Source of the DNA: an uncultured bacterium
GTDB lineage: Bacteria; Fermentibacterota; Fermentibacteria; Fermentibacterales; JCC-6
DNA length: 64,000 bases
NCBI GenBank assembly: GCA_964426545.1
Contig: CAYRQP010000007.1
Location: forward strand, 36,534 to 100,533
Direction of reading: 5' to 3'
Under the pieces are notes generated by a model. That model saw only the letters and a program-made list of their open reading frames with translations. It searched no databases and was not told where the DNA came from. The position numbers and the translations under genes are program-made. Shown piece after piece: positions 6,192 through 31,855 of this stretch; positions within the stretch are counted from its first letter, which is position 1, and each line of letters begins with the position of its first letter.

Positions 6192-6206
6192 ATGAGGAGT
6201 GAGTAG

Positions 6207-7199: not shown

Positions 7200-7204
7200 T
7201 AATA

Positions 7205-8431: not shown

Positions 8432-8465
8432 TCGCTAGTGTATCTGCACAAAAATACCTGCGAGA

Positions 8466-9581: not shown

Positions 9582-9823
9582 TGCCAATTGCGAATTATCC
9601 TTTGCTGCAGAGAAAAAATGCATATTGCCGAAAGTGCGGCAATTCTGTTTGATACAGGTACATTACTATATATAGCAGAAATCCGCCACTCCGCTGCAAA
9701 GAGAGATTTGCTATATTTGCAGGGTGACAGTTTTCGTTACAGTGCTGTTCTTCAAAAGTTAAACTACTGTTATATAGATAATTCGACAAAGGCTTTGTAA
9801 TGATAATGAAAGGACAAAGACAG

Positions 9824-13021: not shown

Positions 13022-13060
13022 ACTGCAGACTTTCAGTTTTCTGAAAGTGGGGAGATGAAT

Positions 13061-15464: not shown

Positions 15465-16683
15465 TACCCTTCAAATAAAGACAAAGAGCCCTGAACATCC
15501 ATGCCTGCGACCATCGCATATGAACTACCGGATTCTTGTGCCATCTATGCCTTTGAAAAATAAAGCCACTCTTTACTTCATCCCACAGGAAATCTATACC
15601 CTTATTCAGAATTCTTTTCGCCGTTTCTCTACCATCCGGATAATAGTCTGTGAGTTTCAGAAAGGTGATTGCTCCCTGCGCAAAAGAATGAGGATCCAGG
15701 GGATATTTTCTTGTTGCATAGTACTTTGCCGTTCCGTCAGGTTCGAAGAGAACATCCCGATAATAACTCAAGCCCGATGTAATACAGTCATCCCATTTGG
15801 AAGTGCCAAGGAGCTTTGAAATGTCGGCGAGTGATTCGAGAATAAATCCTGTATGCAGATTATCGATCCATTGCCAGTGTTCGTCTTCGCCGTAAAACCA
15901 GCTTCCGTCATCATTCTGTCTGGCAATGACATACTCTACTGCCTTCTGCGCAAGTGCAGTCCACTCTTTCCTGTTTTCTTCAGAATATTGTGCAGCATTG
16001 GCAAGTATTTTCGCCCCGAAGAGGGAAGCGTTGAAGACCCTTGTTCTGTCATCCGGTGAGTAACTGAAGCAGATTCCGGTATCATCTTCGTAACGTTTTA
16101 AAGAACGGGTAACGAATTGCGCCGAAGCCCCTGCAATAATTGAAACCGCAGGATTGGCTGAGTCTGATAATGAATCAAGAACAAAATTAGTGCAGACAAC
16201 AGTAGGGAACCATGCCGGCTGCAGAAATGCTCTGCTTTGCCAGGGAAAACTATAGCCCCAGCCCAGAGATAGGACACTGATGTTTTCTGCTATTCCTGCT
16301 ACAATACCGCTGATCGGCTTTCTGTTCTTTACAAAGGCGGCAGAACCATCCGTTTTAGAAGCCATCGAGAGAAGAGAATCTCCTAATACTTCTTTCAGTT
16401 CTCCTGACTTGTCTATTTCAGGGAAATCACTGATACCGGAGAGGAAGAGAGCAAGCCCTTTCGGGTTGGTTATGTCCCGTATGCGAAGGAATGGTCTTAA
16501 ATTCAGGGGACATCGTTTAACAAGCTGGATTAAAGCAAGGCGAAATAAGCGAGAGCGTCTTATGAAGGGAGAGAGCAGTTTACTGTTCAAGCCGTCGTAT
16601 GGATCACTTCCACGGAAATTATCGTGAATTGCGCTTTTTAGAATAACCCCGGCTATTGTCCGGAAACGCTTGCTGCTGTTCAC
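15445..16683 (-). CDS. hypothetical protein, possibly an (alpha/alpha)6 toroid-like domain (heparinase II/III- or C5-epimerase-like)
   Basis: QNDDGSWFYGEDEHWQWIDNLHTGFILESL resembles alpha/alpha-toroid carbohydrate-enzyme helices. No firm family assignment. Confidence 0.35.
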   Translation of the reverse strand: MNSSKRFRTIAGVILKSAIHDNFRGSDPYDGLNSKLLSPFIRRSRLFRLALIQLVKRCPLNLRPFLRIRDITNPKGLALFLSGISDFPEIDKSGELKEVLGDSLLSMASKTDGSAAFVKNRKPISGIVAGIAENISVLSLGWGYSFPWQSRAFLQPAWFPTVVCTNFVLDSLSDSANPAVSIIAGASAQFVTRSLKRYEDDTGICFSYSPDDRTRVFNASLFGAKILANAAQYSEENRKEWTALAQKAVEYVIARQNDDGSWFYGEDEHWQWIDNLHTGFILESLADISKLLGTSKWDDCITSGLSYYRDVLFEPDGTAKYYATRKYPLDPHSFAQGAITFLKLTDYYPDGRETAKRILNKGIDFLWDEVKSGFIFQRHRWHKNPVVHMRWSQAWMFRALCLYLKGNDENLV

Positions 16684-16686
16684 AGT

Positions 16687-18870
16687 TTAATCTCCAATGA
16701 ACTCCTTTATATCGATAACTTCAGGATTTCCGGACTCTAAACTTTTCAAGGTTATGAAAGTTGCCAGAGTTGTCGAAATCAGCGACTCCGGTGAAATGGG
16801 ACAATTACCGGAGGAAAGAGCTGAAATGAACGCTGACATTTCTTCCGCATGTCCCTTACCGGAGAACTTGCCTGTCCGTTTACGATTCCCATAGAATTCC
16901 AGACGGTTGAAATTATCGATTACCCCTGAATTACCTGCTCCCAGAACTTCGAAACGTTCTTTCGGCATGCTTTTGGAGCCTTCTGAAAAATAACTGACGG
17001 ATCCGATCGAACCATCGCTGAAACGCAATGTAATGATAACATTGTCCTCGTTCACGAGGGAACTGTCATCTGAAGAAATGCATTTCGCAAAAACCTCGAC
17101 CGGAAGTGCTTCACAGAAAAACTGCATCAGGTCGATGAAATGACAGACTTCACCGATTATCCTGCCGCCGCCTTCTTCAGAGCCCTGTATCCAGTGTTCT
17201 TTAGGTATATGTCCGGCGTTGACGCGGTACATCATACAGAGGGGAGCGGTCTTTACACCCATATATTTTTTTAACTTGACGGCAGCTTTCGAAAATCTTC
17301 GGTTGAAACCAACCTGAAGCAGAGGAGGTTTGTCAGCGGTTTTAAGAATAGAAGCTATCTCAGTCAGCTGTTCTGTCGTAAGACAAAGCGGCTTTTCAAC
17401 AAATACAGCCTTTCCGGCTTTTAAACACTCGATAACTGCCGGTGCATGCATATCATGTCTTGTGGAAACAACTATTGCATCTGTTTCTTTATCCGAAACA
17501 AGTTCGTCCAGTGTGGCAACAGCCCTGCAGGCATCCTGCTTTCTAGCGGTAGCTGCAGCAGTCAACCCGGATTGAGTGCAGATTGCGGAAAAGTAAGTTT
17601 TCTTGTTCTGTTTGAGAGGCGGGATGAGAAATGTCTGTGCGAAAGAACCCGCTCCAAAAAAACCTATTCCAATGCGTTCCTTCTTGATAGGAGACACTGT
17701 TGTTATGTCAACGGTCCGGATTCTCTCTATGGAATTCGGATAGGAAAGCAGCATACCGCAGTAATACTCTGCTCCGTTTCCTATCAATTCATAGAGTTCC
17801 GGAGCTTTATCGAATTCTCTTCTGTGGGTAATGAGTTTTAACGGGTCGACACCGCCTGATGCCATCAGATCGAGGATGGCTTCAAGGTTTCTTCCCTCAG
17901 TCCACCTTACATAAGCAGCCGGATAGTCATATCCGCCTTCCTCATAGAGCGGGTCATACCGGCCCGGACCATATGAGCACGAAACGGTAAAGGATATTTC
18001 CTTTCTGTAATACGGTTCTCTCGGAATATCCATGCCGACAGCACCGACGACAACGACACGTCCTTTCTTCCTGGTAATTCTACCTGCAAGTTCGATTGGC
18101 TGGTTACTTGAAGTTCCCGCACAGACAATAACCAGATCGGCACCCCGTCCTCTTGTAAAATCAGAAACACCGGCTTCAACACTATCACTGTCGGTTACAA
18201 AGGCAATGCCTGCACTTCCTGCCTTTAGAGCCAGGGCAGATGCTTCCCCTGAAATATCCACACCTGCTACTCTGCATCCATTCGACTTCAGTATCTGGCA
18301 GGCAAGTTGTCCAATTATCCCCAGACCTATTACTACAGCAGTTTCTCCTACTGTGGGAGCCGCTATTCTTATTCCCTGAAGTGCTATTGCTCCAAGGGTT
18401 GCAAAGGAAGCCGTATCAGGGCTTACCCCGGATGGAATCTTAACAGTGAGATTTACCGGAATTACTGTCTGGTCCGCATGATTCGCATATCCGCCGCCCG
18501 CACATGCCACTTGATCACCAATTTCAAAACCGGTGACATCATTACCGATCTCTATTATTTCTCCAGCTGTACTGTATCCAAGGGGCTGAGCACCCTCCAG
18601 TTTAGAACGGACTTTTCTTATTGTATTCTGAAGGCCGAGAGATTTTACCATCTGAATAGCCTGCATTGCCTGTTCAGGTTTTGCTTTTGCTTTACCAATC
18701 AGCGATTTTTTGCCCGTTATTATTTTTCCGCCTTCGGTACCGGGGCTAATGGCTGAGTATAAAGTTCTTACCCGAACACATTTAGCAGGGAGGTTTGGGT
18801 CGGGGGCTGTAATTATTTCAACAGAACCGTCACTTAATCTCTGTCCTAATATTTTCACTCGTTTCTCCAT
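16687..18870 (-). CDS. bi-domain oxidoreductase: N-terminal zinc-type alcohol dehydrogenase (MDR) fused to C-terminal Gfo/Idh/MocA NAD(P)-binding oxidoreductase
   Basis: MDR Rossmann GLGIIGQLACQ with Zn-ADH-like GDQVACAGGGYANHA, followed by Gfo/Idh/MocA IGIGFFGAGSFAQ and EKPLCLT. Confidence 0.7.
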   Translation of the reverse strand: MEKRVKILGQRLSDGSVEIITAPDPNLPAKCVRVRTLYSAISPGTEGGKIITGKKSLIGKAKAKPEQAMQAIQMVKSLGLQNTIRKVRSKLEGAQPLGYSTAGEIIEIGNDVTGFEIGDQVACAGGGYANHADQTVIPVNLTVKIPSGVSPDTASFATLGAIALQGIRIAAPTVGETAVVIGLGIIGQLACQILKSNGCRVAGVDISGEASALALKAGSAGIAFVTDSDSVEAGVSDFTRGRGADLVIVCAGTSSNQPIELAGRITRKKGRVVVVGAVGMDIPREPYYRKEISFTVSCSYGPGRYDPLYEEGGYDYPAAYVRWTEGRNLEAILDLMASGGVDPLKLITHRREFDKAPELYELIGNGAEYYCGMLLSYPNSIERIRTVDITTVSPIKKERIGIGFFGAGSFAQTFLIPPLKQNKKTYFSAICTQSGLTAAATARKQDACRAVATLDELVSDKETDAIVVSTRHDMHAPAVIECLKAGKAVFVEKPLCLTTEQLTEIASILKTADKPPLLQVGFNRRFSKAAVKLKKYMGVKTAPLCMMYRVNAGHIPKEHWIQGSEEGGGRIIGEVCHFIDLMQFFCEALPVEVFAKCISSDDSSLVNEDNVIITLRFSDGSIGSVSYFSEGSKSMPKERFEVLGAGNSGVIDNFNRLEFYGNRKRTGKFSGKGHAEEMSAFISALSSGNCPISPESLISTTLATFITLKSLESGNPEVIDIKEFIGD

Positions 18871-18983
18871 TCAATCTCAATTAGCAATCTTTTAGTATAT
18901 TTGAAAACTTTAACGAATATACTAAATGTGTCTGGCAATACTTATAGAAAATTAGACTCGTACGAAACAAGCCACGGAGTAGA

Positions 18984-20756
18984 ATGACATCTGATCAAAT
19001 AGTTGTTACAACTGTACTGGGACTGACTATCATAGCGCTTTATACCCACAGAGTATCAGCTCCGGTTGTATTTATGACTGCGGCAGTCATTCTCGCGTCA
19101 TTCGGAATCTTGTCTCCAACAGAAGCAATAGCCGGATTTGCCAATGAAGCTATAGCAGTAATGCTCATGCTGATTCTGCTAAGTGGAATTATTAGAAAAA
19201 CAGGAGTTCTCGAATGGCTGTTTTACAAAAAGATACCTCTTTCCACCGGGTACAGGGGATTCCTTGCTCAGATGATACCGTTCACTGCCGGAACATCAGC
19301 TTTCATGAATAACACCCCCATCGTTGCAATGCTTATTCCTTTCGTCCGAGACTGGGGGAAGAAACATGATATTCCTGTTTCAAAACTATTGCTGCCGCTC
19401 TCCTGGGCTGCCATTCTTGGTGGAATGATAACTCTAATTGGAACTTCCACAAACCTGATTGTAAACGGGATGATTGTAGGTACCGGTGGTGAAAGTCTGG
19501 CAATTCTGGATTTTGCCCCCGTAGGAATGATTATTCTTGTTGCAGGCATAACATACATTTTTCTCATTGGATACAAACTGCTTCCGGACAGACAGGACCC
19601 GGCCGAAAATGTTGCCGTACATCCGCGGGAATACATGGCGAATGTAGTAATCGAACCGAACTCACCCCTCGTCGGCAAGACAATAGAACAGGCACACCTT
19701 AGAAATCTCAAAGGGCTTTTTCTTGCGGAGATAATCCGGGAGGGAAGGACAATCGCGCCTGTAAAACCGGAAGATAGACTATCTGTAGGTGATAAACTCG
19801 TTCTTGTCGGTGCGACAGCAGGTATTGCTGAACTGATAGGAAAATTCAGGGGTTTGAAACCGACAGGCGGATTCGAACTTCCCGGAGAAGAGAAAATAAA
19901 AGTCATCGAGGCAGTTGTTTCCAGTCGGTCGTCACTTATTGGTACAATAGTAAAGAAAACGGGCTTTAGGGGAAACTTCGATGCCGCTATCCTAGCAGTT
20001 CACAGAAAGGGAGAAAAACTCAAAGGTAAGATTGGCAGTATCAAGCTGCACCCGGGCGATCTTCTGCTTCTTGTGACCGGGAGTGAATTCGGCAGAAGGG
20101 CAAATGAATCAGATGACCTTCATGTCATTTCGCTTGTAAAGGAACTTCACAATATAGATTTTCGCAAATCTGTTCTTATTGTAGGTACCAGTCTAATTTG
20201 TATTCTTCTGTCTGTATTTTCTCTTGTCCCACTATTTGTATCTCTCATTACCCTTCTGGCATTATTTATGATGCTTCGCATTACATCGCTTTCTGAGTTG
20301 AAAAGAAGCCTGAATATGAATCTTCTGATCACTGCAGCATTTGCATTAGCCGTAGGAAGCGCGGTTGAAAATACGGGACTCGGGGCATTAATGTCGCATT
20401 CTGTTGTATCTGCCTTTAAACCGCTTGGAGTACTTGGGCTTCTTGCCGCTGTATATATTATCACAAATATTCTGGCAGAATTCATTACAACTACAGCAGC
20501 TGCATGCATAGTTCTCCCTTTTGCAGCTTCGGTTGCAGCTGCCCAAACAGGCGTTCCGGCAACACCTTTCTACCTTGCCGTTGCCTACGGAGCAGCCGCC
20601 AACTTCATCACCCCTGTAGGATATCACACCAACCTGATGATATTTGGTCCCGGCGGATATCGTTTCTCTGACTATCTCAAGGCAGGATTCCCGCTTAAGA
20701 TGATCTGTGCTGTTGCGGCAATCTGCGGATTGGGACTGGTTTATGGGTTGTTCTAA
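18984..20756 (+). CDS. SLC13/DASS family anion permease with two central TrkA-C domains
   Basis: Polytopic N- and C-terminal halves flank soluble TrkA-C-like repeats (REYMANVVIEPNSPLVGKTI... and KVIEAVVSSRSSLIGTIV...). Confidence 0.7.
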   Translation: MTSDQIVVTTVLGLTIIALYTHRVSAPVVFMTAAVILASFGILSPTEAIAGFANEAIAVMLMLILLSGIIRKTGVLEWLFYKKIPLSTGYRGFLAQMIPFTAGTSAFMNNTPIVAMLIPFVRDWGKKHDIPVSKLLLPLSWAAILGGMITLIGTSTNLIVNGMIVGTGGESLAILDFAPVGMIILVAGITYIFLIGYKLLPDRQDPAENVAVHPREYMANVVIEPNSPLVGKTIEQAHLRNLKGLFLAEIIREGRTIAPVKPEDRLSVGDKLVLVGATAGIAELIGKFRGLKPTGGFELPGEEKIKVIEAVVSSRSSLIGTIVKKTGFRGNFDAAILAVHRKGEKLKGKIGSIKLHPGDLLLLVTGSEFGRRANESDDLHVISLVKELHNIDFRKSVLIVGTSLICILLSVFSLVPLFVSLITLLALFMMLRITSLSELKRSLNMNLLITAAFALAVGSAVENTGLGALMSHSVVSAFKPLGVLGLLAAVYIITNILAEFITTTAAACIVLPFAASVAAAQTGVPATPFYLAVAYGAAANFITPVGYHTNLMIFGPGGYRFSDYLKAGFPLKMICAVAAICGLGLVYGLF

Positions 20757-20809: not shown

Positions 20810-20915
20810 CATAAGCACCTACCTAAATATCCCCAATAGTACGGTTGACAAGCATATATAATGTGTCTATGTAATAAGTAAGTGTGCTATTGTGATGTAC
20901 CATGTCGGAGGAAAA

Positions 20916-21509
20916 ATGTTTCATACAGTGTTGCTCATAGCCTTTTCTCTTTCACTGCCGCAGACAGGAGTTCTTTCGGGAGATGAAATTGTCTTCAATG
21001 AATTCATGCCTGACCCTGTTGCCAGCACAACCGAATCTGACGGAGAGTGGATTGAACTGTATAACCGTTCGGACAGCTATGTGAACCTTGGCGGATGGGA
21101 AATAGAGAACGAGGACGGTGAACGGATAGTCCTTCAAACATACTTACTGCCCCCCGGCGGGTATTATGTCATAGGAGCCTGCAGCGATATACAAAAAAAC
21201 GGCGGCTATGAACCCGATTGTATCTGGTCGAATTTCAGCATAGATAACAGCGGAGAGTTTTCCCTTTACGACAACTCAAAGACTTTAGTTGATGAAGTAA
21301 CCTACACTGAAGGTGAATGGTCTATTACTTCAGGATGTTCCTGTGAACGGATCAATCCGGGCTGGGTATCTTCACTTCCTTCAACATGGGACTTCTGTAC
21401 ATCCGTTTACGGCAATGGAGACCTTGGGTCCCCCGGAGAGATAAACAGCGTATACGAGAACTCATTTGCTCAGAACAGCTGGGCATTCATCAAGGCTTTT
21501 GTGAACTAG
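20916..21509 (+). CDS. secreted lamin-tail-domain (LTD) protein
   Basis: Signal peptide MFHTVLLIAFSLSL. LTD signature EFMPDP...EWIELYN...GGWEIENEDGE...FSLYD..LVDEV. Start chosen at the ATG with a GGAGG RBS. Confidence 0.55.
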   Translation: MFHTVLLIAFSLSLPQTGVLSGDEIVFNEFMPDPVASTTESDGEWIELYNRSDSYVNLGGWEIENEDGERIVLQTYLLPPGGYYVIGACSDIQKNGGYEPDCIWSNFSIDNSGEFSLYDNSKTLVDEVTYTEGEWSITSGCSCERINPGWVSSLPSTWDFCTSVYGNGDLGSPGEINSVYENSFAQNSWAFIKAFVN

Positions 21510-21524: not shown

Positions 21525-22706
21525 ATGAAAACATCTCTCATTCTGCTGCTTTCTCTGTTTGCATTATTGTCTGCAACCGAGCCGCTGGTAGTATTCTTCA
21601 TAGATCCCACATCGACCCCGCAGGGATTTTCCGGTGATGCAATTCTGGTGTGTACTCCAGCCGGACGAAATTATCTCATTGACGGGGGCATGCTGTGGAA
21701 CGACTTCAGCGATCAAGGCTGGGACTGCGGCACCGAGACAATCCTACCTCTACTTGACAGTCTGGATATCACATATCTCGACGGTATTGTTGGAACCCAT
21801 CCGCATGCCGACCATATAGGTGGATTGATAGCGGTACTCAATAATATGCCTGTAACGACAGCTTATGATTCCGAATGGCCCTATGGCGGCACATGGACCT
21901 ATGAAGAATTTCTCGATGCAATCTACAGAAATGGATCCAACTCTGTTACGCCGCGAAGAGGAGATATCCTCAACTGGGGGTCGGAATTAACTGTTGAAGT
22001 TATCCATCCGGTTGATCCGCTTGCACAGCCGAACGAAAATAACGCTTCAATTACGATTAGATTGACCTATGGAGAAATTTCTTTTCTTTTCACCGGTGAC
22101 CTTGAAACAAGCGGCGGCGAAGATATCATTCTCGCTGCTCTTGCAAGCGGAGATATCGAGAATATTTCTGCAGATGTTCTTAAAGTCGGGCACCACGGTT
22201 CTTATACTTCAACATGCAACAGTTGGCTTGCTGCAGTAGATCCATCCATCGCTGCGATTTGTGTGGGACGGGGAAATGAGTATGGACACCCCCATGGAGA
22301 AGTCATAAACAGACTCAATATGTGGGATATAGACATTTACAGGACAGACGAAGACGGAACATTCTATATTTCCACAGACGGAGAAGATCTCTATTATGAT
22401 TCGATGCCGCCCGAGACCGGCGGCACAGAGCCGGATCCCCCAGCCGGATTTTCAGTATATCCCAGTCCCGCCACTGACGATGTTACATTTGCATGGGATG
22501 CAACCGATGGGGTAACAGCAGCTATTGTCATCTATAATTTGAATGGTGAGAAGGTCAAAGAAATAACGAATATATCATCAGGCATCTGGACATGGACAGA
22601 TATGCGTCTGGACAACAACAGTATTCTGTCTTCCGGACTCTATGCAGCAGTTTTCACGACGAGCGGGGGTGAAACATGGGTAGAATACTTTGCAGTCTCA
22701 CGCTGA
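21525..22706 (+). CDS. secreted MBL-fold metallohydrolase (ComEC/Rec2-type beta-lactamase domain) with T9SS-like C-terminal sorting domain
   Basis: Signal peptide, HPHADHIGG (HxHxDH) and GHHGS motifs. C-terminal YPSP...IYNLNGEKV...GLYAAV...FAVSR resembles a Por_Secre_tail/FlgD-Ig-like domain. Confidence 0.6.
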   Translation: MKTSLILLLSLFALLSATEPLVVFFIDPTSTPQGFSGDAILVCTPAGRNYLIDGGMLWNDFSDQGWDCGTETILPLLDSLDITYLDGIVGTHPHADHIGGLIAVLNNMPVTTAYDSEWPYGGTWTYEEFLDAIYRNGSNSVTPRRGDILNWGSELTVEVIHPVDPLAQPNENNASITIRLTYGEISFLFTGDLETSGGEDIILAALASGDIENISADVLKVGHHGSYTSTCNSWLAAVDPSIAAICVGRGNEYGHPHGEVINRLNMWDIDIYRTDEDGTFYISTDGEDLYYDSMPPETGGTEPDPPAGFSVYPSPATDDVTFAWDATDGVTAAIVIYNLNGEKVKEITNISSGIWTWTDMRLDNNSILSSGLYAAVFTTSGGETWVEYFAVSR

Positions 22707-23560
22707 TACCGATGTTTCTATCGCTTCCCGCCTATGCCGGCACCGGAGCAGCTGGTCTTCTGATGCTCTGTTCTCCGGGCTTTCCCGAACAGATGATGCT
22801 CGGTCCGGCAGGCATGTCTCTTGCAGCGGGACCAACTGCATTGACTTCGAACCCGGCTCTTCTGATATCCGGTTTTTCAGCAGCGGGTGGCAGATGGAAT
22901 CTCTCTACAACATCAGTTTCCTTTTCAGGTGCCTTCTCTTCAGGTAACCTGATATGTGCCGGCGGGCTGAGATATCTGGGTAAAACCGGATTGATTAGAA
23001 GGAATGCAAGCGGAGAAGCAATAGGAGAATATTCATTTTCTTCGGGTTTCGCAGGCGGTGGAGTTGCATTTCCCATTACTGATTATCTATCCGGCGGAAT
23101 TTCAGGCGGAGCAGTATGGGAATCTATTGCCGAAGAAGGCGGGACCGGCTTTGCAGCCAATGCAGGCCTGGCAATGAAATTATTTGATAATATTGATTTT
23201 GGACTGACTGTTAACGGATTTGGGCAGGCTCCTTCATGGGAAGGCATTCACAATGACATGCCGGTTGAAATCTCAGGCGGAATAGGCATTCCATTCGCAC
23301 AGGTGTGTTACGGTTTTGCAGGGGTAAGACAGGGATTCAGCACAGCAGATCTGTACGGCACCGGATTGATGTTTACGGTGTCAGGTGTATCCTGTTCGGG
23401 CGGGTATCAATACTCTACTCAGGACGGTCAATCGGGCATATTCGGTGGATTGAACTATTCGACGAAATCAGTCGGAGAAGAATATTCCATATCCATAGGT
23501 TTTGCTCAGAGTGATGAGTTCTCCTGGCCGGTTTTGGCCGGGCTGACGGTCAGCTTCTAA
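22676..23560 (+). CDS. outer-membrane beta-barrel protein, PorP/SprF-like (putative T9SS cargo partner)
   Basis: Gly/aromatic-rich, alternating amphipathic strands, C-terminal Phe (LTVSF). SLPAYAGTG resembles the NPAYAG motif of the PorP/SprF family. Lies directly downstream of a T9SS-CTD cargo gene. Confidence 0.4.
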   Translation: MGRILCSLTLIPMFLSLPAYAGTGAAGLLMLCSPGFPEQMMLGPAGMSLAAGPTALTSNPALLISGFSAAGGRWNLSTTSVSFSGAFSSGNLICAGGLRYLGKTGLIRRNASGEAIGEYSFSSGFAGGGVAFPITDYLSGGISGGAVWESIAEEGGTGFAANAGLAMKLFDNIDFGLTVNGFGQAPSWEGIHNDMPVEISGGIGIPFAQVCYGFAGVRQGFSTADLYGTGLMFTVSGVSCSGGYQYSTQDGQSGIFGGLNYSTKSVGEEYSISIGFAQSDEFSWPVLAGLTVSF

Positions 23561-23665: not shown

Positions 23666-24142
23666 TTAGAACTTTGTTGCTGAGGAATAATCATCCATAT
23701 CATACTTGATGAGTATATCGGGCATGGGTAGTTTATCCAACTTCACCCCGGAATTTTCGAAAAATTCTTCGGCAAGAGAGTGCCCTGTATAGTCTGAAAA
23801 AATAACCACGCGGACTATTCCTGCCGCAAGCAGCGCTTTTGAACAGGTGGTACACGGCATATTCGTGATGTAGGCGGTAGAACCGTCAATAGAGACACCG
23901 TGCCGCGCTGCCTGGGCTATGGCATTCATTTCCGCATGATTCGTGCGTACGCAGTGTTCCTCGACTATCAGGCATCCGATGTCTTCACAGTGTTCGAGTC
24001 CGGGAAGTGAGCCGTTATAACCGGTTGAAAGTACATATTTGTCCTTGACCAGAACACAGCCGCAGTGCATTCTGGGGCAGGTTGCCCGTTCAGATGCAAG
24101 CATGGCAAGTTTTAGAAAGTACTTATCCCACGGAGGTCTCAA
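23666..24142 (-). CDS. dCMP deaminase (ComEB-like cytidine/deoxycytidylate deaminase)
   Basis: Zinc-binding HAEMNAI and PCTTC motifs; 158 aa. Confidence 0.75.
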   Translation of the reverse strand: MRPPWDKYFLKLAMLASERATCPRMHCGCVLVKDKYVLSTGYNGSLPGLEHCEDIGCLIVEEHCVRTNHAEMNAIAQAARHGVSIDGSTAYITNMPCTTCSKALLAAGIVRVVIFSDYTGHSLAEEFFENSGVKLDKLPMPDILIKYDMDDYSSATKF

Positions 24143-24185: not shown

Positions 24186-25703
24186 CTAATTGCCAAAGGA
24201 ATAGTCGACCTGAAGTCCTGCGCCATATCTTGAATTCCCGACGGTTTCCTCCCAGCCGCTGCCGATGACTTTCAGGTTTTCGAAATTCTTCCAGTATCCC
24301 CGTGCTGTCAGTTTGAAGCCGTTTGGAATTGACAGTGATACGGCTCCCTGAAGCATAAAACCGGAATCCCATAGAGAAACGGATCCAAATTCCCCCGGAA
24401 AAACAATCTCGGCAGCATAGATCCGTGAATTATATCCCCGGGTAGAAAAAGCAATAGCCCCTGCCCACAAACGCCATTGGGAGTTCAGGTCATACCGCAG
24501 CCTGAATTCTCCGCCAGTACCGGTTTCGGAAGAATCTGATTCGGAATCCTGCCAGCCGGTAGCCTGGACTTTTGCAGAAAGATGTATTTTCCTTCCGGGA
24601 TCCCATGTTGTTTTAAGCCATAAGCGATAGGAATTATCATCTTCACTTCCGGAATTTCTTCCCCCTAATGTGAAAAGCAGCCTTCCTTCAAGTCTCTGCT
24701 GTATTTCCCCTGAAAATTTCAGCAGATACTCATCATCGATGAATTGAGTCCTTACTCCTGCAGAGAAAGTAGTTCTTTCGAAGGGGCGGAAACGAAAACC
24801 GTATCCCGCCCCAAAGTCACAGGAAGTGCCTATTGGGAAAGAAGCCCGTGTCTCAGGAAAACCCTCAGGAAGACGGTAGATTGTGATGTTATGTTTGAAC
24901 AGGTCGAGATTTTGTGTAAGAGCAGCCCATCCGGCAAAAGACAGTACAGTATCTACGAAAAACTGCCCAATCCCTGCTTCTCCGGATATGAGGAAGTCCT
25001 CGAAATTCAACCTCCAGTCCACTCCGCCGCGATATACTAAAGATGTGGAATCATCTTCGAAGGCTCTTCTAATTACAGCTGCGGTGATTCCGGCTTCAGG
25101 GATGGAAAGACGGAAAACTCCCAGTAATTCAGTAATACTTACCCGATCCGCGATTTCGGAAGGGGTTCGGTGATACCCTTCGCCGGAGCCGTCTATTTTG
25201 GAATAAGCGCTCAGTACAGAGAGATTATATGTACCCACAGATAACTGTGTCCCTATTCCTGTCATGGGTTCGCCACGGATTCCCCAAGAAGATGTAGCCA
25301 GCCGGATGTAATCTCTTATACCCGGCGGTTTGCATAAGTTCAGATTATCGACACCTGTCCAGGAACCGGGATATGAAAAGATAACCCCTGACCCGAGTTT
25401 TGACTTAAGCCATCCTGCAGAGACTGATGTAAAAGGAGACGACGAAGAGTTCCATCTGCATCCGCCTGCAATGATATCCACCCAGTCTTCACCCCTGTTC
25501 TTGTCCATGAGAAGGGACAAGTCGAGACCACCGGCAGATATCCTTATACGGTTATATAAAGAATATTCATCCCCTGTATATTCTCCGCCAAGTGTACCGC
25601 GGCAATCCGGAAACCGCCGCCAAATTCTCGTTCGGATATCGCCCTCGATGCTGTAGGCGGCGGATACGGTAAGCATGAGAAGCAGGATTGAGAAATATTT
25701 CAC
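24186..25703 (-). CDS. outer-membrane beta-barrel protein of unknown function
   Basis: Signal peptide MKYFSILLLMLTVSAAYS. About 500 aa of alternating aromatic/Gly-rich strand-like segments. GTG start overlaps the upstream stop (GTGA). Confidence 0.45.
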   Translation of the reverse strand: MKYFSILLLMLTVSAAYSIEGDIRTRIWRRFPDCRGTLGGEYTGDEYSLYNRIRISAGGLDLSLLMDKNRGEDWVDIIAGGCRWNSSSSPFTSVSAGWLKSKLGSGVIFSYPGSWTGVDNLNLCKPPGIRDYIRLATSSWGIRGEPMTGIGTQLSVGTYNLSVLSAYSKIDGSGEGYHRTPSEIADRVSITELLGVFRLSIPEAGITAAVIRRAFEDDSTSLVYRGGVDWRLNFEDFLISGEAGIGQFFVDTVLSFAGWAALTQNLDLFKHNITIYRLPEGFPETRASFPIGTSCDFGAGYGFRFRPFERTTFSAGVRTQFIDDEYLLKFSGEIQQRLEGRLLFTLGGRNSGSEDDNSYRLWLKTTWDPGRKIHLSAKVQATGWQDSESDSSETGTGGEFRLRYDLNSQWRLWAGAIAFSTRGYNSRIYAAEIVFPGEFGSVSLWDSGFMLQGAVSLSIPNGFKLTARGYWKNFENLKVIGSGWEETVGNSRYGAGLQVDYSFGN

Positions 25704-26779
25704 TCAGTTACCAGATATTCCTGCAGGATTTCAAGCATGGCAGGACCTATGCCTGGACAATCATCCAGTGTGGCAACAGACCCGACAGGACCGTTCTCCT
25801 GCACCCATGCATGAATAGTACCGGCTTTCGACGGCCCGATTCCGGGAATGAACTCGAGTTCTTCTGCAGTTGCAGTGTTTATGTTAAGGGGGAAGGAAAC
25901 TGTCAGTTCCTCTTCCTGTTCGTCTTCCAGAATAAGCGGAGCAGGATCAGATGCACACCCGCCCCATGCAAGCGAAGCTACATGAGTGCCGGGAAGGGAC
26001 GCATGGTTACCGTATCCCCATGACAGGTCGAAGTCGGAGAGAGAGATAACAACAGCAAATGAAAGTCTGACCGGATTTGTGACGGCTCCTGTCTGAAGGG
26101 TAAGTTCTTCCACGGGAGACGCGGAAACATGGAAGGAATATTCAGACTCAAGCCCTTCATTCCTGCGGAAGCCGGCACTGAGAGTAACTCCATCAACGGG
26201 AACGATACCTGCTGCAAGGTCGAATCCGCGAGGCTGGGCAGGGTCGCCGGACACTCCGATTTCAGTACGCAGAACACCCCTTACCGCACCTGCAAAGTGA
26301 ATACCCTGAATTGGGATACAACTGAAGCCTACATCCAGTCCGGCTCCGCTTCCACTGCCGTATCCGCTGATAGCAAGCCGCCTGTAAGAACAGCCGATTC
26401 CGACAGCAATTCCATCTGTAATCTTCCGTGCAGCAGAAGCGAGAATAGTGCCCTCTGTGTACGAATGGTCTCCTGATAGAGAGAAAGCCCCGCCCACGAA
26501 CCAACTGTCGAACATCATTCCGCCGGAAAGCGAAGTTTTATCGAGTTCGCTTAGTCCATATGGTCTTGCACCTGATATTGCTATCCCCGAACTTTCGAGA
26601 AAAGAAGTAGCGGCAGGATTTTCCAGCATGACATGCGGGGAGCGTGGGAACAGTGAAGATGCCGGCCCGCAAAGAAGCCACGGAGATTCGGGCATTGGCT
26701 CGAAAGCCCCTTCTGAAATGGAAACACAGAAGAAGCAGGTAATCAGGTAGAACATCAAACGATTGTCTAAAATTGTCAT
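25700..26779 (-). CDS. ComEA-like helix-hairpin-helix DNA-binding protein with a large N-terminal beta-rich (barrel-like) domain
   Basis: C-terminal NINTATAEELEFIPGIGPSKAGTIHAWVQENGP...LDDCPGIGPAMLEILQEYL is a ComEA-type tandem HhH. The N-terminal ~270 aa is Gly/aromatic-rich with amphipathic strands and a signal peptide. Confidence 0.55.
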   Translation of the reverse strand: MTILDNRLMFYLITCFFCVSISEGAFEPMPESPWLLCGPASSLFPRSPHVMLENPAATSFLESSGIAISGARPYGLSELDKTSLSGGMMFDSWFVGGAFSLSGDHSYTEGTILASAARKITDGIAVGIGCSYRRLAISGYGSGSGAGLDVGFSCIPIQGIHFAGAVRGVLRTEIGVSGDPAQPRGFDLAAGIVPVDGVTLSAGFRRNEGLESEYSFHVSASPVEELTLQTGAVTNPVRLSFAVVISLSDFDLSWGYGNHASLPGTHVASLAWGGCASDPAPLILEDEQEEELTVSFPLNINTATAEELEFIPGIGPSKAGTIHAWVQENGPVGSVATLDDCPGIGPAMLEILQEYLVTE

Positions 26780-26937
26780 ACTATAGTGTACTTCATATTG
26801 AAGAGAATTTCAAGCCTCATCTATTTTGAATAAAACACCAGAACCTGACAGCAATATTGACGCTTGACAATAGGTAAGCAAGTCATCAGTCTATGCTGTT
26901 GAATAATTAATTAAATCGGTTAATCCGATAGACTTTT

Positions 26938-28419
26938 TTGGAGCTGATAATGGACCATGCATGTCCCGGATATTTCCGGCGGCAGGATGGCAGTGTACTA
27001 ACAGACATTGCATTGGAAGTTCTGCGGAAACGCTTTCCGCATTCTAATAATCCTGTACGAGACTGGCTTCCCGGCAGACCTGACTGGGAAGAGGGTCTGC
27101 CCGATATCGATATCCTTAAGCAGGAACTTACAGACCTCCGCAGCCGCGGGGGGAAAATAGTCATATATGGTCATGATGATATGGACGGCGTGACAGGGCT
27201 TTTCGTCGGAGTTACAATTCTCCGGGCTGAAGGTTATACCGTCATTCCAATAATCCCCCGCAGTTCTACAGACGATTACGGTATCCGTCCTGCAAGAATG
27301 GAAGGTATTCTGAATAGCGGAGACCTTCTTCTTACCGTGGACTACGGTTGCTCCGCCGTCCACGGAGTGAAGTGGGCTATTGAAAAGGGCGCGCGGGTGG
27401 TAATAACAGACCATCACTTACTTAATCCTCCGCTTCCGCCTGCACACGGATTAATCAACCCGCAATTCTTCGGATTGCCCGGGATAGTATTAGCCGGATG
27501 CGGCGTTCTATATGCATCACTTGTTTCTATATTTCCGCACTGGGAAAACAACGCTAACCTCCTTGCCGCCGTTGCTTTGGGAACAGTTGCCGACAGAGTC
27601 CCGCTCTCGGGATGGAATCGTTATCTGTTGTCCGAATTCAGTAGAGTCAACATTGAAAAGTTAAGCACCGGTTTAAGGATGTTCATCGATGAATGGCCCG
27701 CCCGTACATCTGCATGGACGGGACTTATGGTTCGTCAAAGGATAATATCTGTTATCGGCAAGGGTGAAAAATCAGAGATCGACAGATTGCTCGAGTTTAT
27801 GATGACCAATGATAAAGAAAGTGTTAGAAAGCAGTGGATCAATATGAGGGATACAAGCAGGAAAAGGTCCCGGGCACTCTCGAAGTACTTCACTCTGGCA
27901 ATGCAGAGCAGGGATGAGCAGGCAGCAGCTTACGGCATGACGCTTATCTATATGGATTCACTTCCGAGCGGAATGGGAGGGGCAATTGCCGGGCGCATAA
28001 CCAAGATTGACAAGAGAAGCGTAATAGTCGTTTCTCCGCGCGAAGATGGGACTCTGGGCGGAGAAGCAAGATCTGCCGGGGATTGGAATGTAGCAGGATT
28101 TCTTACGGGTATGAAGAATGTATTTGCCAGTGCCGGCGGTCATAAAATGGCGGCGGGATTCAGCTGCAGAGATAAATCATGGGAAGAACTGAGAGAAATC
28201 ATGCTGTCCAGAATGACTGAATATCCGGCAGAACCCTTACCGCAACCCCACATTGACCTTGAAGTAACCGAACTCCCCGATCCCAATGAATTCAAGTGCC
28301 TTGCACCCTTTGGTCCCGGTTTTCTTCCGCCTGCTGTAAAAAAAGACAACCTTCGTTATCTTCTGCAGGTTGGCGAAAATAACATTAACTGGAGAATTTC
28401 AGAAGAAGGCGGCGATTAA
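26938..28419 (+). CDS. DHH/DHHA1 phosphoesterase, RecJ-like core (no C-terminal OB domain)
   Basis: Motif I IYGHDDMDGVTG, motif III VVITDHH and DHHA1 GGHKMAAGF. Confidence 0.6.
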   Translation: MELIMDHACPGYFRRQDGSVLTDIALEVLRKRFPHSNNPVRDWLPGRPDWEEGLPDIDILKQELTDLRSRGGKIVIYGHDDMDGVTGLFVGVTILRAEGYTVIPIIPRSSTDDYGIRPARMEGILNSGDLLLTVDYGCSAVHGVKWAIEKGARVVITDHHLLNPPLPPAHGLINPQFFGLPGIVLAGCGVLYASLVSIFPHWENNANLLAAVALGTVADRVPLSGWNRYLLSEFSRVNIEKLSTGLRMFIDEWPARTSAWTGLMVRQRIISVIGKGEKSEIDRLLEFMMTNDKESVRKQWINMRDTSRKRSRALSKYFTLAMQSRDEQAAAYGMTLIYMDSLPSGMGGAIAGRITKIDKRSVIVVSPREDGTLGGEARSAGDWNVAGFLTGMKNVFASAGGHKMAAGFSCRDKSWEELREIMLSRMTEYPAEPLPQPHIDLEVTELPDPNEFKCLAPFGPGFLPPAVKKDNLRYLLQVGENNINWRISEEGGD

Positions 28420-29399
28420 TGCAGTACATAGTAACAGGTGCAGCAGGATTCATAGGGAGTAATCTTGTTAAGGAACTTCTGAGTCAGCGGAAAAAGGTAA
28501 TCGGGATAGATTGTTTCAGGGACTATTATTCACCGGAAATAAAGAGAAAGAACATCGCTTCATTCACATCTAACCAGTTATTTACACTGATAGAAGAGGA
28601 CCTGTCACAAAAAGGGACAGCCAGGTTGGAAGCCGTTTTAGTCGGCAAAGAGGAAGTGGTAATTTATCACCTTGCTGCTCAGGCAGGAGTTCGGAAAAGT
28701 TGGGGAAAAGCGTTCTCTCTATACACAGGTGATAATATTCTGGCTACTCAGAATCTTCTGGAATGGGCTTACCGCAGGGGTAATATCAACAACTTTATCT
28801 TTGCTTCATCATCTTCAGTTTACGGAAGGGTTACGGACCTTCCAATGGTTGAAGACACGACTGTTCCAACCCCGGATTCTCCCTATGGAGTAACTAAACT
28901 TGCCGCCGAAAATCTTGTTCGTCTATATACCCGCAACTATAACCTTCCGAGCGTATCACTGCGTTTCTTCACGGTGTACGGCGAAGGGCAGAGACCGGAT
29001 ATGGCTTTCAATATCTTCACAAAGGCAATCCTCTCCGGGGAACCCGTCAATATCTTCGGAGACGGGATGCAGACAAGGGATTTCACTTATATAGGGGATG
29101 TTGTCAAAGGTCTGATGCTGGCTGAAGAATGCATCGATGGCAGGATCATGAACCTCGGCGGGGGGAATACGCTTCCGCTTCTGGAAGCAATCAACATACT
29201 TGAAATGGTTATCGGGAAGAAGACTAATCTGAAATTTCACCCGGTACAGCCCGGTGATGTTCGGGACACACTTGCATCGACCGAATTGTTCAAACAGACA
29301 ACCGGGTGGAAACCATCCACTCCGCTTGGCGAAGGCCTTGCAAAAGAAGTCGACTGGATAAAGGGGGACACACCACACGCGGGGTCAAACCCCTTTTAG
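28419..29399 (+). CDS. NAD-dependent epimerase/dehydratase, UDP-glucuronate 4-epimerase-like
   Basis: GAAGFIGSNLVKELL, YGVTKLAAE and RFFTVYGEGQRPDMAF are typical of CapI/UDP-GlcA epimerases. TAATG overlap with the upstream gene. Confidence 0.7.
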   Translation: MQYIVTGAAGFIGSNLVKELLSQRKKVIGIDCFRDYYSPEIKRKNIASFTSNQLFTLIEEDLSQKGTARLEAVLVGKEEVVIYHLAAQAGVRKSWGKAFSLYTGDNILATQNLLEWAYRRGNINNFIFASSSSVYGRVTDLPMVEDTTVPTPDSPYGVTKLAAENLVRLYTRNYNLPSVSLRFFTVYGEGQRPDMAFNIFTKAILSGEPVNIFGDGMQTRDFTYIGDVVKGLMLAEECIDGRIMNLGGGNTLPLLEAINILEMVIGKKTNLKFHPVQPGDVRDTLASTELFKQTTGWKPSTPLGEGLAKEVDWIKGDTPHAGSNPF

Positions 29400-29464
29400 A
29401 ACAACGGCTCAAGCTATTGTCAGCGACACCTTAAGGGACATTGACAACTTCAAAACAATTAATG

Positions 29465-29511
29465 AGGGACACCATAGAATAGTCGCCTGTCACCATTTAC
29501 ATGGTGTCCCT
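29465..29511. terminator. hairpin AGGGACACCAT-N25-ATGGTGTCCCT between convergent genes
   Basis: 11-bp perfect inverted repeat read from the sequence. No strong U-run, so the function is uncertain. Confidence 0.35.
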
Positions 29512-29519
29512 AATTAAGT

Positions 29520-31100
29520 CTATTCGATAAGGTCACTGTCGTCGCGGGGTTCGATTTTCCAGTTGTCGTAGCTATACATGCACACACCTATGATTTCGCT
29601 GAAAGTATCACCGACAGTAGGCTCATATGTATAGTCTCCCAGATCATCGATTCTAATATCACCCGTACCGTCATCGACAGCCCATTCACCGTATCCAAGG
29701 TCATCTTCAGAAACTTCTACATCAGACACCGATACGAGAACGGATTCCCACTGTTCTTCAGCGACACTGCCCGTAGAGAGAGCTTCAGCAGCCGGAAGGG
29801 TGTGACCGGTCGAGTGAACATCGACAGCAGACGGATAAGAAAGTTCTGTGAAACTGTAGTATTCCTGGATTTCTCCTGTAATCGTGATACTGTCTCCTCT
29901 TGCAAGCCCTGCAACATCGGAACCGAAGAGAGTCAAGCCGGCCCACGCACCGCCGCCTTCGTCCATTATAACGGCATAGGCATACTGGCTGGAATAATAT
30001 TCATCGCCGCCGACAACTACGATTCCTGTCACACTGACAATCTGCCCTTCATAAGGCGAGGCTGACTGCTGTCCCTGTACTTCGTAGCAGGTGAGTGCAT
30101 CTCCGCCACTGCCGCCGGAAGAAACATCCAGGTCCGCATTGTCTCTCGGCTCGAGTTTCCATTCATTGTATGCATACCAGACTACGCCTGTTGCAGAAAA
30201 TACAGTATCTCCGAGCGCTGCCTGCCATGTAAATGTACCAAGGTCATCACCCATGCAGTCGCCGGTTCCGTCATCCATCAGCCACTGTCCGTATTCCTGT
30301 ACTTCGGTTACAATGGCATCGGTTACTGTAACAAGAACGGATTCGTATGCTTCAGGGTCTGCTGATTGTGAAATGTCAGCGGTTGTAACCGCAGTCGAAG
30401 GAGGTATAGGGTTTCCGGAAGAGACCACTTCTACAGAAGTAATGTATTTAACTTCTGTCATCTCCCAGAACTCTTCGACTGTTCCGGAGACGATGACACT
30501 GTCACCGCGTGCAAGATATGCAATGCTGTCACCGAAAAGAGTAAGTCCCGCCCATGCACCGCCTGAAGGGTCGGCGATTACAGCAACAGGATCACCATAG
30601 AAGCAATCGCCGGCAACTGTAACTATACCGGTAACTTCGACTTCCTGACCCGCATAAGGGGAAGTAGATGCCTGTCCCTGTATTTCATAGCAGGTGAGGT
30701 ATTCTCCACCGCCACTGCCGCCGGAATCGGGAGTTACAGATTCTTCATTGCTCCATGCATGAAGATCCTCTGTATCCGTTGTACGGAGAGCGTAGTAATA
30801 CTTGGTGCCCCATTCAAGATCCGGGTCGGTGAATGTAGTCTCATTAATATCATAAACAGGTCCCTTTACGAGGTCAGACGATGCAGATACTCCCTGAGAC
30901 GTATCTCTGTAAAGGTTATATTCCGCAAAGTCGTCATCAGGGCAAACTGTCCAGGATCCGGATGCTGTCGTATTGGTCACACTTACGCTTAGTGTAGAAG
31001 CAGTAGGGTTGCTGCTGGGTCCTGTCTCATCATCGCCGCAGGACATCATCAGCCCCATAGCAACGATTAAGACAACAAGAAACCATTTGTATTTAGTCAT
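29520..31100 (-). CDS. surface lipoprotein with FN3-like domain and two tandem duplicated OB-fold-like domains
   Basis: Lipobox MMSCGDD and an FN3-like N-terminal region. Two ~170-aa repeats (SGGSGGGEYLTCYEIQGQASTSPYAGQEVEVTGIVTV... / SGGSGGDALTCYEVQGQQSASPYEGQIVSVTGIVVV...) have an OB-fold (tRNA_anti-like) VxVxGxV...D.sG pattern. Confidence 0.5.
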   Translation of the reverse strand: MTKYKWFLVVLIVAMGLMMSCGDDETGPSSNPTASTLSVSVTNTTASGSWTVCPDDDFAEYNLYRDTSQGVSASSDLVKGPVYDINETTFTDPDLEWGTKYYYALRTTDTEDLHAWSNEESVTPDSGGSGGGEYLTCYEIQGQASTSPYAGQEVEVTGIVTVAGDCFYGDPVAVIADPSGGAWAGLTLFGDSIAYLARGDSVIVSGTVEEFWEMTEVKYITSVEVVSSGNPIPPSTAVTTADISQSADPEAYESVLVTVTDAIVTEVQEYGQWLMDDGTGDCMGDDLGTFTWQAALGDTVFSATGVVWYAYNEWKLEPRDNADLDVSSGGSGGDALTCYEVQGQQSASPYEGQIVSVTGIVVVGGDEYYSSQYAYAVIMDEGGGAWAGLTLFGSDVAGLARGDSITITGEIQEYYSFTELSYPSAVDVHSTGHTLPAAEALSTGSVAEEQWESVLVSVSDVEVSEDDLGYGEWAVDDGTGDIRIDDLGDYTYEPTVGDTFSEIIGVCMYSYDNWKIEPRDDSDLIE

Positions 31101-31135: not shown

Positions 31136-31855
31136 TTAGTTATTCTCATTCAGTTTTTTGTTTATCAGTACAAATAACTTCGATTTTAGATCAGGGTCAT
31201 CTTCGAGGTCGTCATCAATATCGATGCAGATAGATATCTTGATCTTCTTTTCAGTTGGAATATCAGCAGCTTCGGTTTCCTGTAAGGCCGGTGTCGATTC
31301 TGTTATTATTTCAGGTTCCACCTGTGGCTCAATTTCATCCGCGACTTCTTCCTCTTCTACCTCTTCAGCAATCTCAGTTATTGCTTCTTCTGTAATTTCA
31401 TCTACAGGTTCATGTTCTTCGAGTATCAGTTCTTCTTTTTCTTCAGGAAACTCAGCAAGGTCGCAAAGAACTTTGAAAGTAAGAGTGACATATGCTGCTT
31501 CCTGTCCGGTATCGTCAGAATTGTCTGTGAAATATACCATGAGATATTTGCTCTCAAGATCTGCGGCATCGGAATATTCTTTGAAAAGCGGTTCGTAGGC
31601 TGTCAATACTGCCTGTCCGAGAATCAACGGGTTGCCACCGGATTCGATGAAGTCATTCCAGATTTTGGCAGGAGTATTATCTTCACAGGTAAACCCAAGA
31701 AAGGCAAGCATATCAAGAAGACGAATGTCCACATCGCGCACAAACCCGATGTCTCTCAGATAAGCTTCATCGACAAGTTTGGGTACTTCTATGGATGAGA
31801 TTTTATTTAAAAGGGTTTCTATGCTGCCCGGATTGTGTATTCCCGGAAAATTCAT
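31136..31855 (-). CDS. hypothetical protein with acidic low-complexity C-terminal half
   Basis: ORF with E/D-rich tail (EEVEEEEVADEIEPQVEPE). No recognisable motif. Confidence 0.4.
   Translation of the reverse strand: MNFPGIHNPGSIETLLNKISSIEVPKLVDEAYLRDIGFVRDVDIRLLDMLAFLGFTCEDNTPAKIWNDFIESGGNPLILGQAVLTAYEPLFKEYSDAADLESKYLMVYFTDNSDDTGQEAAYVTLTFKVLCDLAEFPEEKEELILEEHEPVDEITEEAITEIAEEVEEEEVADEIEPQVEPEIITESTPALQETEAADIPTEKKIKISICIDIDDDLEDDPDLKSKLFVLINKKLNENN

Follow-up and report, generated by a model that had tools for sequence, protein, structure and literature searches.

The type IV pilus is the classical DNA-uptake machine, and to our knowledge the only outer-membrane route known from work on the Fibrobacterota–Chlorobiota–Bacteroidota (FCB) group is the TonB-dependent DdbCD pair. 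DNA uptake and DNA feeding without type IV pili in this group were opened up by studies of Riemerella anatipestifer (2021; PMC8459023) and of the Bacteroides ddb locus (2025; PMC12478041). In Bacteroides thetaiotaomicron, the ddbABCDEF DNA-utilization locus encodes the DUF5689 protein DdbD; modelling gave it a p202-HIN-like fold, and it is proposed to bind substrate as a partner of the TonB-dependent transporter DdbC. The same study gives C(x/xx)(D/E)(D/E) as the Bacteroidota signal for surface export of lipoproteins (PMC12478041). In R. anatipestifer, RA0C_RS04920 (DUF5689 plus DUF5017) is essential for natural transformation, and it is genetically required for DNA uptake together with the outer-membrane barrel RS04915 and the helix-hairpin-helix (HhH) protein RS02645 (PMC8459023). 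Two further points of comparison come from nucleases. The 'YhcR-like' region of ExeM consists of two putative oligonucleotide/oligosaccharide-binding (OB) folds, and its deletion abolishes nuclease activity (PMC6085458); the metallo-beta-lactamase (MBL) domain of ComEC is an experimentally shown nuclease (PMC8579336). Here we compare with these systems a locus in a 64,000-nucleotide window (the whole stretch of DNA analyzed; contig CAYRQP010000007.1, G+C ~45%) from an uncultured bacterium of the Fermentibacterota, in which a RecJ-like DHH/DHHA1 nuclease gene and a sugar-nucleotide epimerase gene converge on the gene for a surface lipoprotein with predicted tandem OB folds.

Candidatus Fermentibacterota is the phylum also called Aegiribacteria or Fermentibacteria, with Hyd24-12 as its older name. 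A literature search for Fermentibacteria together with extracellular DNA or competence found nothing relevant. Our comparison suggests that the locus is an undescribed form of extracellular-DNA capture system, kin of the DNA-utilization and transformation loci of the FCB group. We give about even chances to the view that the block around these genes serves to capture and process extracellular DNA, and that the three genes do not form one machine. Unusual in it are a clade of OB-less RecJ proteins, a ComEA fused to a barrel and a ComEC-type MBL that is free and secreted. We infer each functional step in this reading from domain identities, folds, localization signals and synteny. The open reading frame (ORF) map confirms the three genes and their order, and their parts are as follows.

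26950..28419, plus strand: RecJ-family DHH/DHHA1 nuclease core, 489 aa, cytoplasmic (Pfam, NCBIfam and PDB matches, motifs)
~27154-27585, plus strand: DHH domain (Pfam, 1.8e-15)
~27961-28200, plus strand: DHHA1 domain (Pfam, 3.7e-8)
28201-28416, plus strand: 72-aa tail, putative remnant of the RecJ OB domain (no PF17768 match)
28419..29399, plus strand: extended short-chain dehydrogenase/reductase (SDR), NAD-dependent sugar-nucleotide epimerase, UDP-glucuronate 4-epimerase-like, 326 aa (PDB and Pfam matches, motifs)
29520..31100, minus strand: surface lipoprotein, 526 aa, with signal peptide and Cys21, fibronectin type III (FN3) domain and two tandem-OB modules (sequence, models, Foldseek)
31026..31100, minus strand: signal peptide, lipobox Cys21, C-G-D-D-E (sequence)
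30726..31013, minus strand: FN3 domain, aa ~30-125 (Foldseek; PF00041 in homologues)
30123..30704, minus strand: tandem-OB module 1, aa 133-326, two predicted five-stranded barrels (model; ExeM_NucH_DNase 1.2e-11)
29523..30104, minus strand: tandem-OB module 2, aa 333-526, two predicted five-stranded barrels (model; ExeM_NucH_DNase 9e-8)

The lipoprotein carries the comparison with known systems. Its sequence C21-G-D-D-E fits the Bacteroidota surface-export signal, and 59 homologues share C21, D24 and E25 without exception and G22 and D23 almost without exception. The initial annotation had described a convergent lipoprotein with an FN3-like domain and two tandem repeats of ~170 aa, each with one OB fold. 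The FN3 domain was found as described (Foldseek match 3mpc, TM 0.75; PF00041 in homologues), and a marginal FN3 match is all that the lipoprotein sequence yields against the PDB. The duplication is also clear, with aa ~126-324 and ~327-525 sharing 52% identity (score 524 versus 41±7 for shuffles), but the repeat unit is ~195 aa long rather than ~170. Per-module Pfam OB matches are weak (E 0.005-0.02), so Pfam alone is insufficient to assign the fold. The full-length AlphaFold model (pLDDT 89.8) retrieved only FN3 proteins in a Foldseek search of the PDB, which was uninformative for the repeats, and a single module was therefore predicted again (module 2 alone, pLDDT 97.1, pTM 0.92). In the models each repeat unit consists of two five-stranded barrels, the first in the classic b1-b2-b3-helix-b4-b5 order; the OB assignment thus holds, with two barrels per unit and four in total instead of one per repeat. 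Foldseek matches of the single module include the tandem-OB DNA binders POT1, the p202/IFI16/AIM2 HIN domains and Thermus SSB. Carbohydrate-binding folds do not occur among the module's structural matches, and with OB barrels in the model the repeats do not appear to be carbohydrate-binding or Ig-like domains. No catalytic domain was found in the lipoprotein, and it does not match Exo_endo_phos. On these models, it is predicted to lack catalytic function and to combine a lipid-anchor signal and a single FN3 domain with four OB barrels in two DUF5689-type modules.

The proposed likeness to YhcR and ExeM is borne out by the NCBIfam model ExeM_NucH_DNase (NF033681), which matches the whole protein at 9e-19 and both modules at model positions 42-122. 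The score of 67.7 bits is far below the cut-off of 300 because the endonuclease/exonuclease/phosphatase (EEP) catalytic domain is missing. Relative to ExeM, NucH and YhcR (NF033681, NF033680), the YhcR-like OB region is homologous to our module and an LTD domain occurs in both systems, but the lipoprotein has no EEP domain, its module is duplicated, LTD is encoded by a separate gene, and the protein is anchored by lipid instead of by a GlyGly-CTERM/rhombosortase signal. A hidden Markov model of the module matches 9506 representative clusters at 50% identity, 984 of them at E<=1e-30; most of the matched proteins are 500-2800 aa long and contain 2-7 modules. In 59 of the best relatives, the accompanying domains are the C-terminal domain of the type IX secretion system (T9SS; 28), FlgD_ig (23), CHU_C (10), LTD (9), DUF5689 (PF18942; 9), EEP (2) and PLD (1). 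In one relative (P0373), the module spans 248-431 (2.4e-29) and Pfam DUF5689 spans 247-431, the latter at model positions 4-217 of 217. The module is best identified as the DUF5689 domain, because both cover the same stretch of that protein; the window lipoprotein itself has no PF18942 match, and the link is transitive through P0373.

This identification makes DUF5689 proteins and DdbD the closest known relatives, which the initial annotation had missed along with the strong acidity of the modules. The window lipoprotein shares with DdbD (PF18942) the predicted tandem-OB, HIN-like fold and the signal peptidase II (SPII) signal followed by the C(x/xx)(D/E)(D/E) export motif. It differs in having two modules and an FN3 domain, in belonging to another phylum and in lacking an adjacent TonB-dependent transporter among the scanned ORFs; where DdbD has DdbA, DdbB and DdbF, it has a ComEC-type MBL and an LTD protein as nuclease neighbours. 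The lipoprotein family itself occurs in one-module (~333 aa), two-module (~530 aa) and three-module (721 aa) versions (P0003, P0093-P0120). In Sabulitectum-type loci (L026-L028, L032, L039), lipoprotein matches of ~320-350 aa lie 1-7 kb further from the RecJ-like gene and are probably one-module versions. In a single instance outside the Fermentibacterota (L086, 8001..9635), a full-length relative of the lipoprotein, 33% identical, lies beside a pilMNOPQ cluster (pilM, pilO and secretin, 1..5495).

The second main component is the DHH/DHHA1 gene. Its longest ORF spans 26938 (TTG)..28419, and the alternative start ATG 26950 is more likely, because GGAG lies 6 nt upstream of it. A 5-bp hairpin followed by a T-run (26915..26939, plus strand) stands just before this GGAG/ATG; such sites are not above chance in the region. 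Among family models, the protein matches RecJ models only, with TIGR00644 as the best NCBIfam match (5.4e-54; 183.4 bits, below the cut-off of 396.9), and its solved relatives are likewise RecJ only (5f54, 8y30, 1ir6 and 2zxo, 1e-26 to 1e-30). DHH motifs I-IV and the GGH-type motif of DHHA1 can be read in the sequence (HDDMDG, DYG, DHH, GTVADRVPL, GGHKMAAG), and 31 clade members do not vary at D76, D77, D79, D131, D154, H155, H156, D215, G396, G397 and H398. The alignment to Deinococcus radiodurans RecJ covers residues 70-461 only, that is, the nuclease core and the start of the OB region. Even at E<=10, neither the window protein nor any of three clade members matches RecJ_OB (PF17768), which scores 1e-23 and 1e-30 in the canonical RecJs P0212 and P0194, respectively. 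In canonical RecJs, PF17768 begins ~18 residues past DHHA1 and takes ~107 residues. The window protein has only 72 residues past DHHA1, with the conserved tail LAPFGPGFLPP...W.I.EE.G in its clade, so at most about the first two OB strands would be kept. Judged by its sequence, the protein is a RecJ-family nuclease core with intact catalytic motifs and a truncated OB domain, in agreement with its first description as RecJ-like without the C-terminal OB domain. No signal peptide was found in the protein.

Approximately 70 non-redundant Fermentibacterota proteins of 470-500 aa share this architecture at 50-81% identity. Beyond them, identity falls abruptly to ~30%, and the next relatives are all canonical RecJs of ~560 aa with RecJ_OB. 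The short RecJ appears to define a Fermentibacterota-specific clade, and the gene is evidently not a pseudogene, because so many proteins of the phylum share its architecture. The metagenome-assembled genome (MAG) QNDS01 has two loci with a short RecJ-like gene (L014, L021), which could reflect duplication or mixed strains in the bin. Compared with bacterial RecJ from Thermus thermophilus (2zxo, 1ir6) and D. radiodurans (5f54), the protein is alike in DHH motifs I-IV, the DHHA1 GGH motif, the long linker helix region and alignment over the whole core. It differs in that the OB domain (PF17768, ~107 aa) is reduced to a ~54-aa tail after the linker, in the absence of the C-terminal SSB-binding domain and in being only ~30% identical to any canonical RecJ. 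It thus resembles the engineered 'cd-RecJ' or nuclease core, which is active but weakly processive. When isolated, the nuclease core of D. radiodurans RecJ is still active, though far less so and with far lower processivity, and resection at junctions of single- and double-stranded DNA depends critically on the OB domain (PMC4846377). Because that isolated core is weakly processive, the OB-less RecJ is expected to be poorly processive as well and to act best on short, free single-stranded DNA.

The epimerase gene starts within the stop codon of the RecJ-like gene. At the junction GAT TAA TG CAG, the stop codon TAA occupies 28417-28419 and the start codon ATG 28419-28421, so the TAATG overlap noticed earlier is real and amounts to one base. 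The product matches Epimerase PF01370 (5.9e-51) and has the GxxGxxG and YxxxK motifs, as GAAGFIGS and YGVTK. Its closest solved relatives are the Bacillus cereus UDP-glucuronate 4-epimerase BcUGAepi (6zl6, 4.8e-68) and then MoeE5 (6kv9, 1.3e-54), with full-length alignments and shared extended-SDR motifs. The window protein differs from both in that it reaches no NCBIfam equivalog cut-off, and its UDP-glucuronate specificity is putative.

Synteny was counted over 65 loci whose proteins are 30-63% identical, with denominators that vary by feature. In 39 of 57 Fermentibacterota loci with enough downstream sequence, the epimerase gene lies directly 3' of the DHH gene, and where this junction is present it is usually tight, the two genes overlapping in 11 of 40 cases and standing 0-30 nt apart in 23 (together 34/40). 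At the other 18 of 57 loci, scattered over clades, the epimerase gene is missing there and the lipoprotein gene is usually next; in one locus (L085) it lies elsewhere in the block, divergent from the LTD gene. The two genes are apparently often co-transcribed, and because of these 18 loci their pairing is facultative; the unusual functional pairing of the initial annotation is thus not supported as a meaningful couple. Many glycosyltransferase, DUF354 and GFO/IDH/MocA oxidoreductase genes form an envelope-polysaccharide cluster (1..19000 and 54032..55237), which could be the real functional context of the epimerase. Most likely the epimerase is an operon passenger serving envelope polysaccharide synthesis, an economical explanation because the window is so rich in glycosyltransferase genes. 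Between the convergent epimerase and lipoprotein genes, a 24-nt inverted repeat (29452-29475 and 29501-29524; 83% complementary, 25-nt loop) overlaps the lipoprotein stop codon and may be a shared bidirectional terminator; a strict terminator scan did not detect it. Promoter and terminator scans gave site counts not above chance, and Rfam and tRNA scans of the whole window returned no match.

The comparison with competence systems depends on the genes around these three, which are listed here in order.

20892..21509, plus strand: LTD protein (Pfam)
21525..22706, plus strand: secreted ComEC-type MBL (TIGR00361 positions 451-663 at 1e-36; HxHxDH; borderline T9SS C-terminal sorting domain)
22676..23560, plus strand: p294, PorV/PorQ-like barrel (weak PorV/PorQ matches)
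23666..24142, minus strand: ComEB-like dCMP deaminase (TIGR02571 8.4e-46, below cut-off)
24186..25703, minus strand: p505, an orphan resembling outer-membrane proteins (signal peptide, C-terminal LQVDYSF)
25700..26779, minus strand: secreted HhH protein, 359 aa, divergent from the RecJ gene (beta-rich N-domain of ~280 aa, C-terminal ComEA-type HhH)
31136..31855, minus strand: DUF5343 protein, long acidic tail at the C-terminus; lipoprotein gene 35 nt downstream (Pfam; PADLOC PDC-M34A 1.5e-17)

The claim that a stretch of ~10 kb is enriched in extracellular nucleic-acid-handling domains gains strength from three of these genes, those for the ComEC-type MBL, the ComEB-like deaminase and the ComEA-type HhH protein. 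Together they place the counterparts of the Bacillus comE operon, namely the ComEA-type HhH, the ComEB-like deaminase and the C-terminal MBL of ComEC, within 6 kb. The HhH domain is the C-terminal 60 aa of its protein (ComEA 8dss, 3.4e-23; TIGR00426 in 14/14 members, best 2.8e-22), and NCBI names the protein 'ComEA family DNA-binding protein'. Whereas canonical ComEA is a protein of ~200 aa with an SLBB domain, the HhH protein has no SLBB (PF10531) match and carries its HhH behind the phylum-specific beta-rich domain, which is related to p294 (hhalign Prob 86%). The MBL differs from ComEC in being free and secreted with a T9SS-type tail and in lacking the ComEC channel and OB domains. No ComEC, DprA or ComF was seen in the window.

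With the Riemerella system, the locus shares a set consisting of a surface DUF5689-type protein, one or more outer-membrane barrels and a secreted protein with a C-terminal HhH (aa 236-301 in RS02645, aa ~298-356 in the window protein). A profile search found the full architecture of the HhH protein only in Fermentibacterota, so the link to RS02645 is limited to the HhH domain. RS04915 is a barrel of the TonB-dependent type with a carboxypeptidase-regulatory domain, which p505 lacks. The p505 gene overlaps the HhH gene by 4 nt; p505 has no sequence relative in Pfam, NCBIfam or the PDB, even with an 18-sequence profile, and hhalign found no relation to the HhH N-domain or to p294. No TonB-dependent receptor was found in two loci (L001, L002). 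The run of LTD, MBL and p294 genes looks like T9SS cargo encoded with its own shuttle. Independent evidence that the organism uses T9SS-type cargo signals comes from a peptidase C25-like protein elsewhere in the window (56072..57589, plus strand), which carries a T9SS sorting domain at its C-terminus. A defence island was considered and rejected, with no PADLOC match for RecJ, the epimerase, the lipoprotein, the HhH protein or p505; PADLOC otherwise gave generic MBL and LTD matches and the DUF5343 protein as candidate defence family PDC-M34A. Whether the DUF5343 protein belongs to the system is uncertain.

Much of this arrangement is conserved across the phylum. All best 64 genome loci in a genome-collection scan belong to Fermentibacterota, as do all named close homologues of the lipoprotein and the DHH protein. 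The HhH gene lies upstream of and divergent from the DHH gene in 54/58 loci. The ComEB-like deaminase is present in 52/53 loci, p505 in 51/53, LTD in 34/37 and the MBL in 18/37, and the lipoprotein gene lies convergent downstream within 10 kb in 40/48. Two main block arrangements differ by one inversion. In L001, L047-L054 and L085, the LTD, MBL and p294 genes immediately precede the lipoprotein gene and share its strand, and in the Fermentibacter clade the order LTD, MBL, p294, lipoprotein is tight and co-directional.

These components can be arranged into a pathway in which the lipoprotein would capture extracellular nucleic acid at the surface, as proposed for DdbD, RA0C_RS04920 and the YhcR-like region of ExeM. 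The DNA would then be cut by the secreted ComEC-type MBL nuclease, assisted by the LTD protein as its partner and the PorV/PorQ-like barrel, and fragments would pass the outer membrane, for which p505 is the only candidate conduit. The barrel-tethered ComEA-type HhH domain might hold them in the periplasm. Once imported, single strands would be degraded to dNMPs by the RecJ core, and the ComEB-like deaminase would pass dCMP to salvage.

Several observations weigh against this reading. Neither a TonB-dependent transporter, the partner role of DdbC, nor a ComEC channel was found in the scanned ORFs of the window, and the PorV/PorQ and T9SS sorting-domain assignments are weak, falling below curated cut-offs. 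RecJ and dCMP deaminase are ordinary housekeeping functions, and RecO near the short RecJ gene in L002 fits a role in repair. The genes may thus be coincidental neighbours: a repair RecJ without its OB domain, an epimerase making envelope UDP-galacturonate and an unrelated lipoprotein, in a block kept together by low rearrangement. Genes for ValRS, a GGDEF regulator and the DUF5343 protein are equally syntenic, so conservation of the block may reflect low rearrangement instead of function. The comings and goings of the epimerase in a glycosyltransferase-rich window are as expected for such neighbours, and the genome scan gave one DHH match per genome, one MAG excepted. Coincidence does not readily account for five or six independent types of nucleic-acid domain (tandem OB/DUF5689, LTD, ComEC-MBL, ComEA-HhH, ComEB and RecJ) within 10 kb, or for the position of the LTD-MBL-p294 run, which adjoins the block in both arrangements and in one is tightly co-directional with the lipoprotein gene. 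Outside the Fermentibacterota, moreover, module genes adjoin LTD genes (L082, L083), an EEP+LTD nuclease gene (L087) or another DUF5689 gene (L088). We consider coincidence somewhat unlikely, but a serious contender.

The acidity of the lipoprotein raises a different objection. The mature protein has a net charge of -78 (12 K+R versus 90 D+E, with 1-3 basic residues per barrel), and all 417 modules in 148 non-redundant relatives have pI values of 4.05-5.15, nuclease fusions included. Acidity is shared by the other secreted proteins of the block (MBL -41, HhH protein -25, LTD -22), whereas the cytoplasmic neighbours are not acidic in this way (RecJ -4, epimerase -1, UvrA +21). Classical DNA-binding OB and HIN domains are unlike such acidic modules. 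The extreme acidity implies that DNA binding would need cation bridging or base stacking, or that the ligand differs; DNA binding is putative for the whole module family, DdbD included. The OB modules might therefore bind a cationic polysaccharide, a metal or mineral surface, a polyamine or a protein, and the lipoprotein would be an adhesin or nutrient binder. D-rich loops (VDDGTGD..DDLGD) appear to resemble Ca2+ sites, OB folds also bind oligosaccharides and proteins, and the module's best structural matches include an engineered OBody in complex with lysozyme. Among the relatives, many are large multi-domain proteins secreted by the T9SS that carry FlgD_ig, PKD or dockerin domains, as is typical of adhesins, and the gene next door encodes a sugar epimerase. 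We nevertheless regard another ligand as quite unlikely. Modules of equal acidity are found both in proteins fused to EEP or PLD nucleases and in DUF5689 proteins. ExeM needs the homologous region for its nuclease activity, a DUF5689 protein is essential for natural transformation, and the structural matches include no carbohydrate-binding fold.

Lastly, the DHH protein is very improbable as an NrnA/pAp-phosphatase-type enzyme or cyclic-dinucleotide phosphodiesterase tied to nucleotide-sugar metabolism through the epimerase: the missing OB domain that defines RecJ, the score below the RecJ equivalog cut-off and the NCBI label 'DHH family phosphoesterase' would fit such an enzyme, but all significant family and structure matches are to RecJ, with no NrnA, GdpP or Pde model among them, the nearest relatives outside the clade are canonical RecJs with RecJ_OB, and a length of 489 aa (versus ~310-330 aa), the RecJ-type long linker and the RecJ motif GTVADRVPL led us to reject the NrnA/nanoRNase or oligoribonuclease grouping that had been raised against the RecJ assignment.

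In summary, the locus shows a DUF5689-type tandem-OB module in an uncultured sister phylum, where it is duplicated, lipid-anchored and set among disassembled 'comE' functions and an OB-less RecJ. The module family is very large, consists mostly of T9SS cargo free of catalytic domains and is uniformly acidic, which raises the question of how, or whether, a polyanion is recognized. Anaerobic digesters and sediments, in which Fermentibacterota are abundant, contain a large pool of phosphorus and nitrogen in the form of extracellular DNA. A bolder form of the proposal, which we think unlikely as it stands, is an apparatus, independent of TonB and linked to the T9SS, that captures extracellular DNA and imports it. 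It would comprise the OB lipoprotein, an MBL/LTD/PorV-PorQ-like shuttle, the p505 conduit, a barrel-tethered ComEA ratchet and a dedicated OB-less RecJ paralogue. If true, it would be a third solution to DNA uptake across the outer membrane, besides the type IV pilus with PilQ and the SusCD-like DdbCD.

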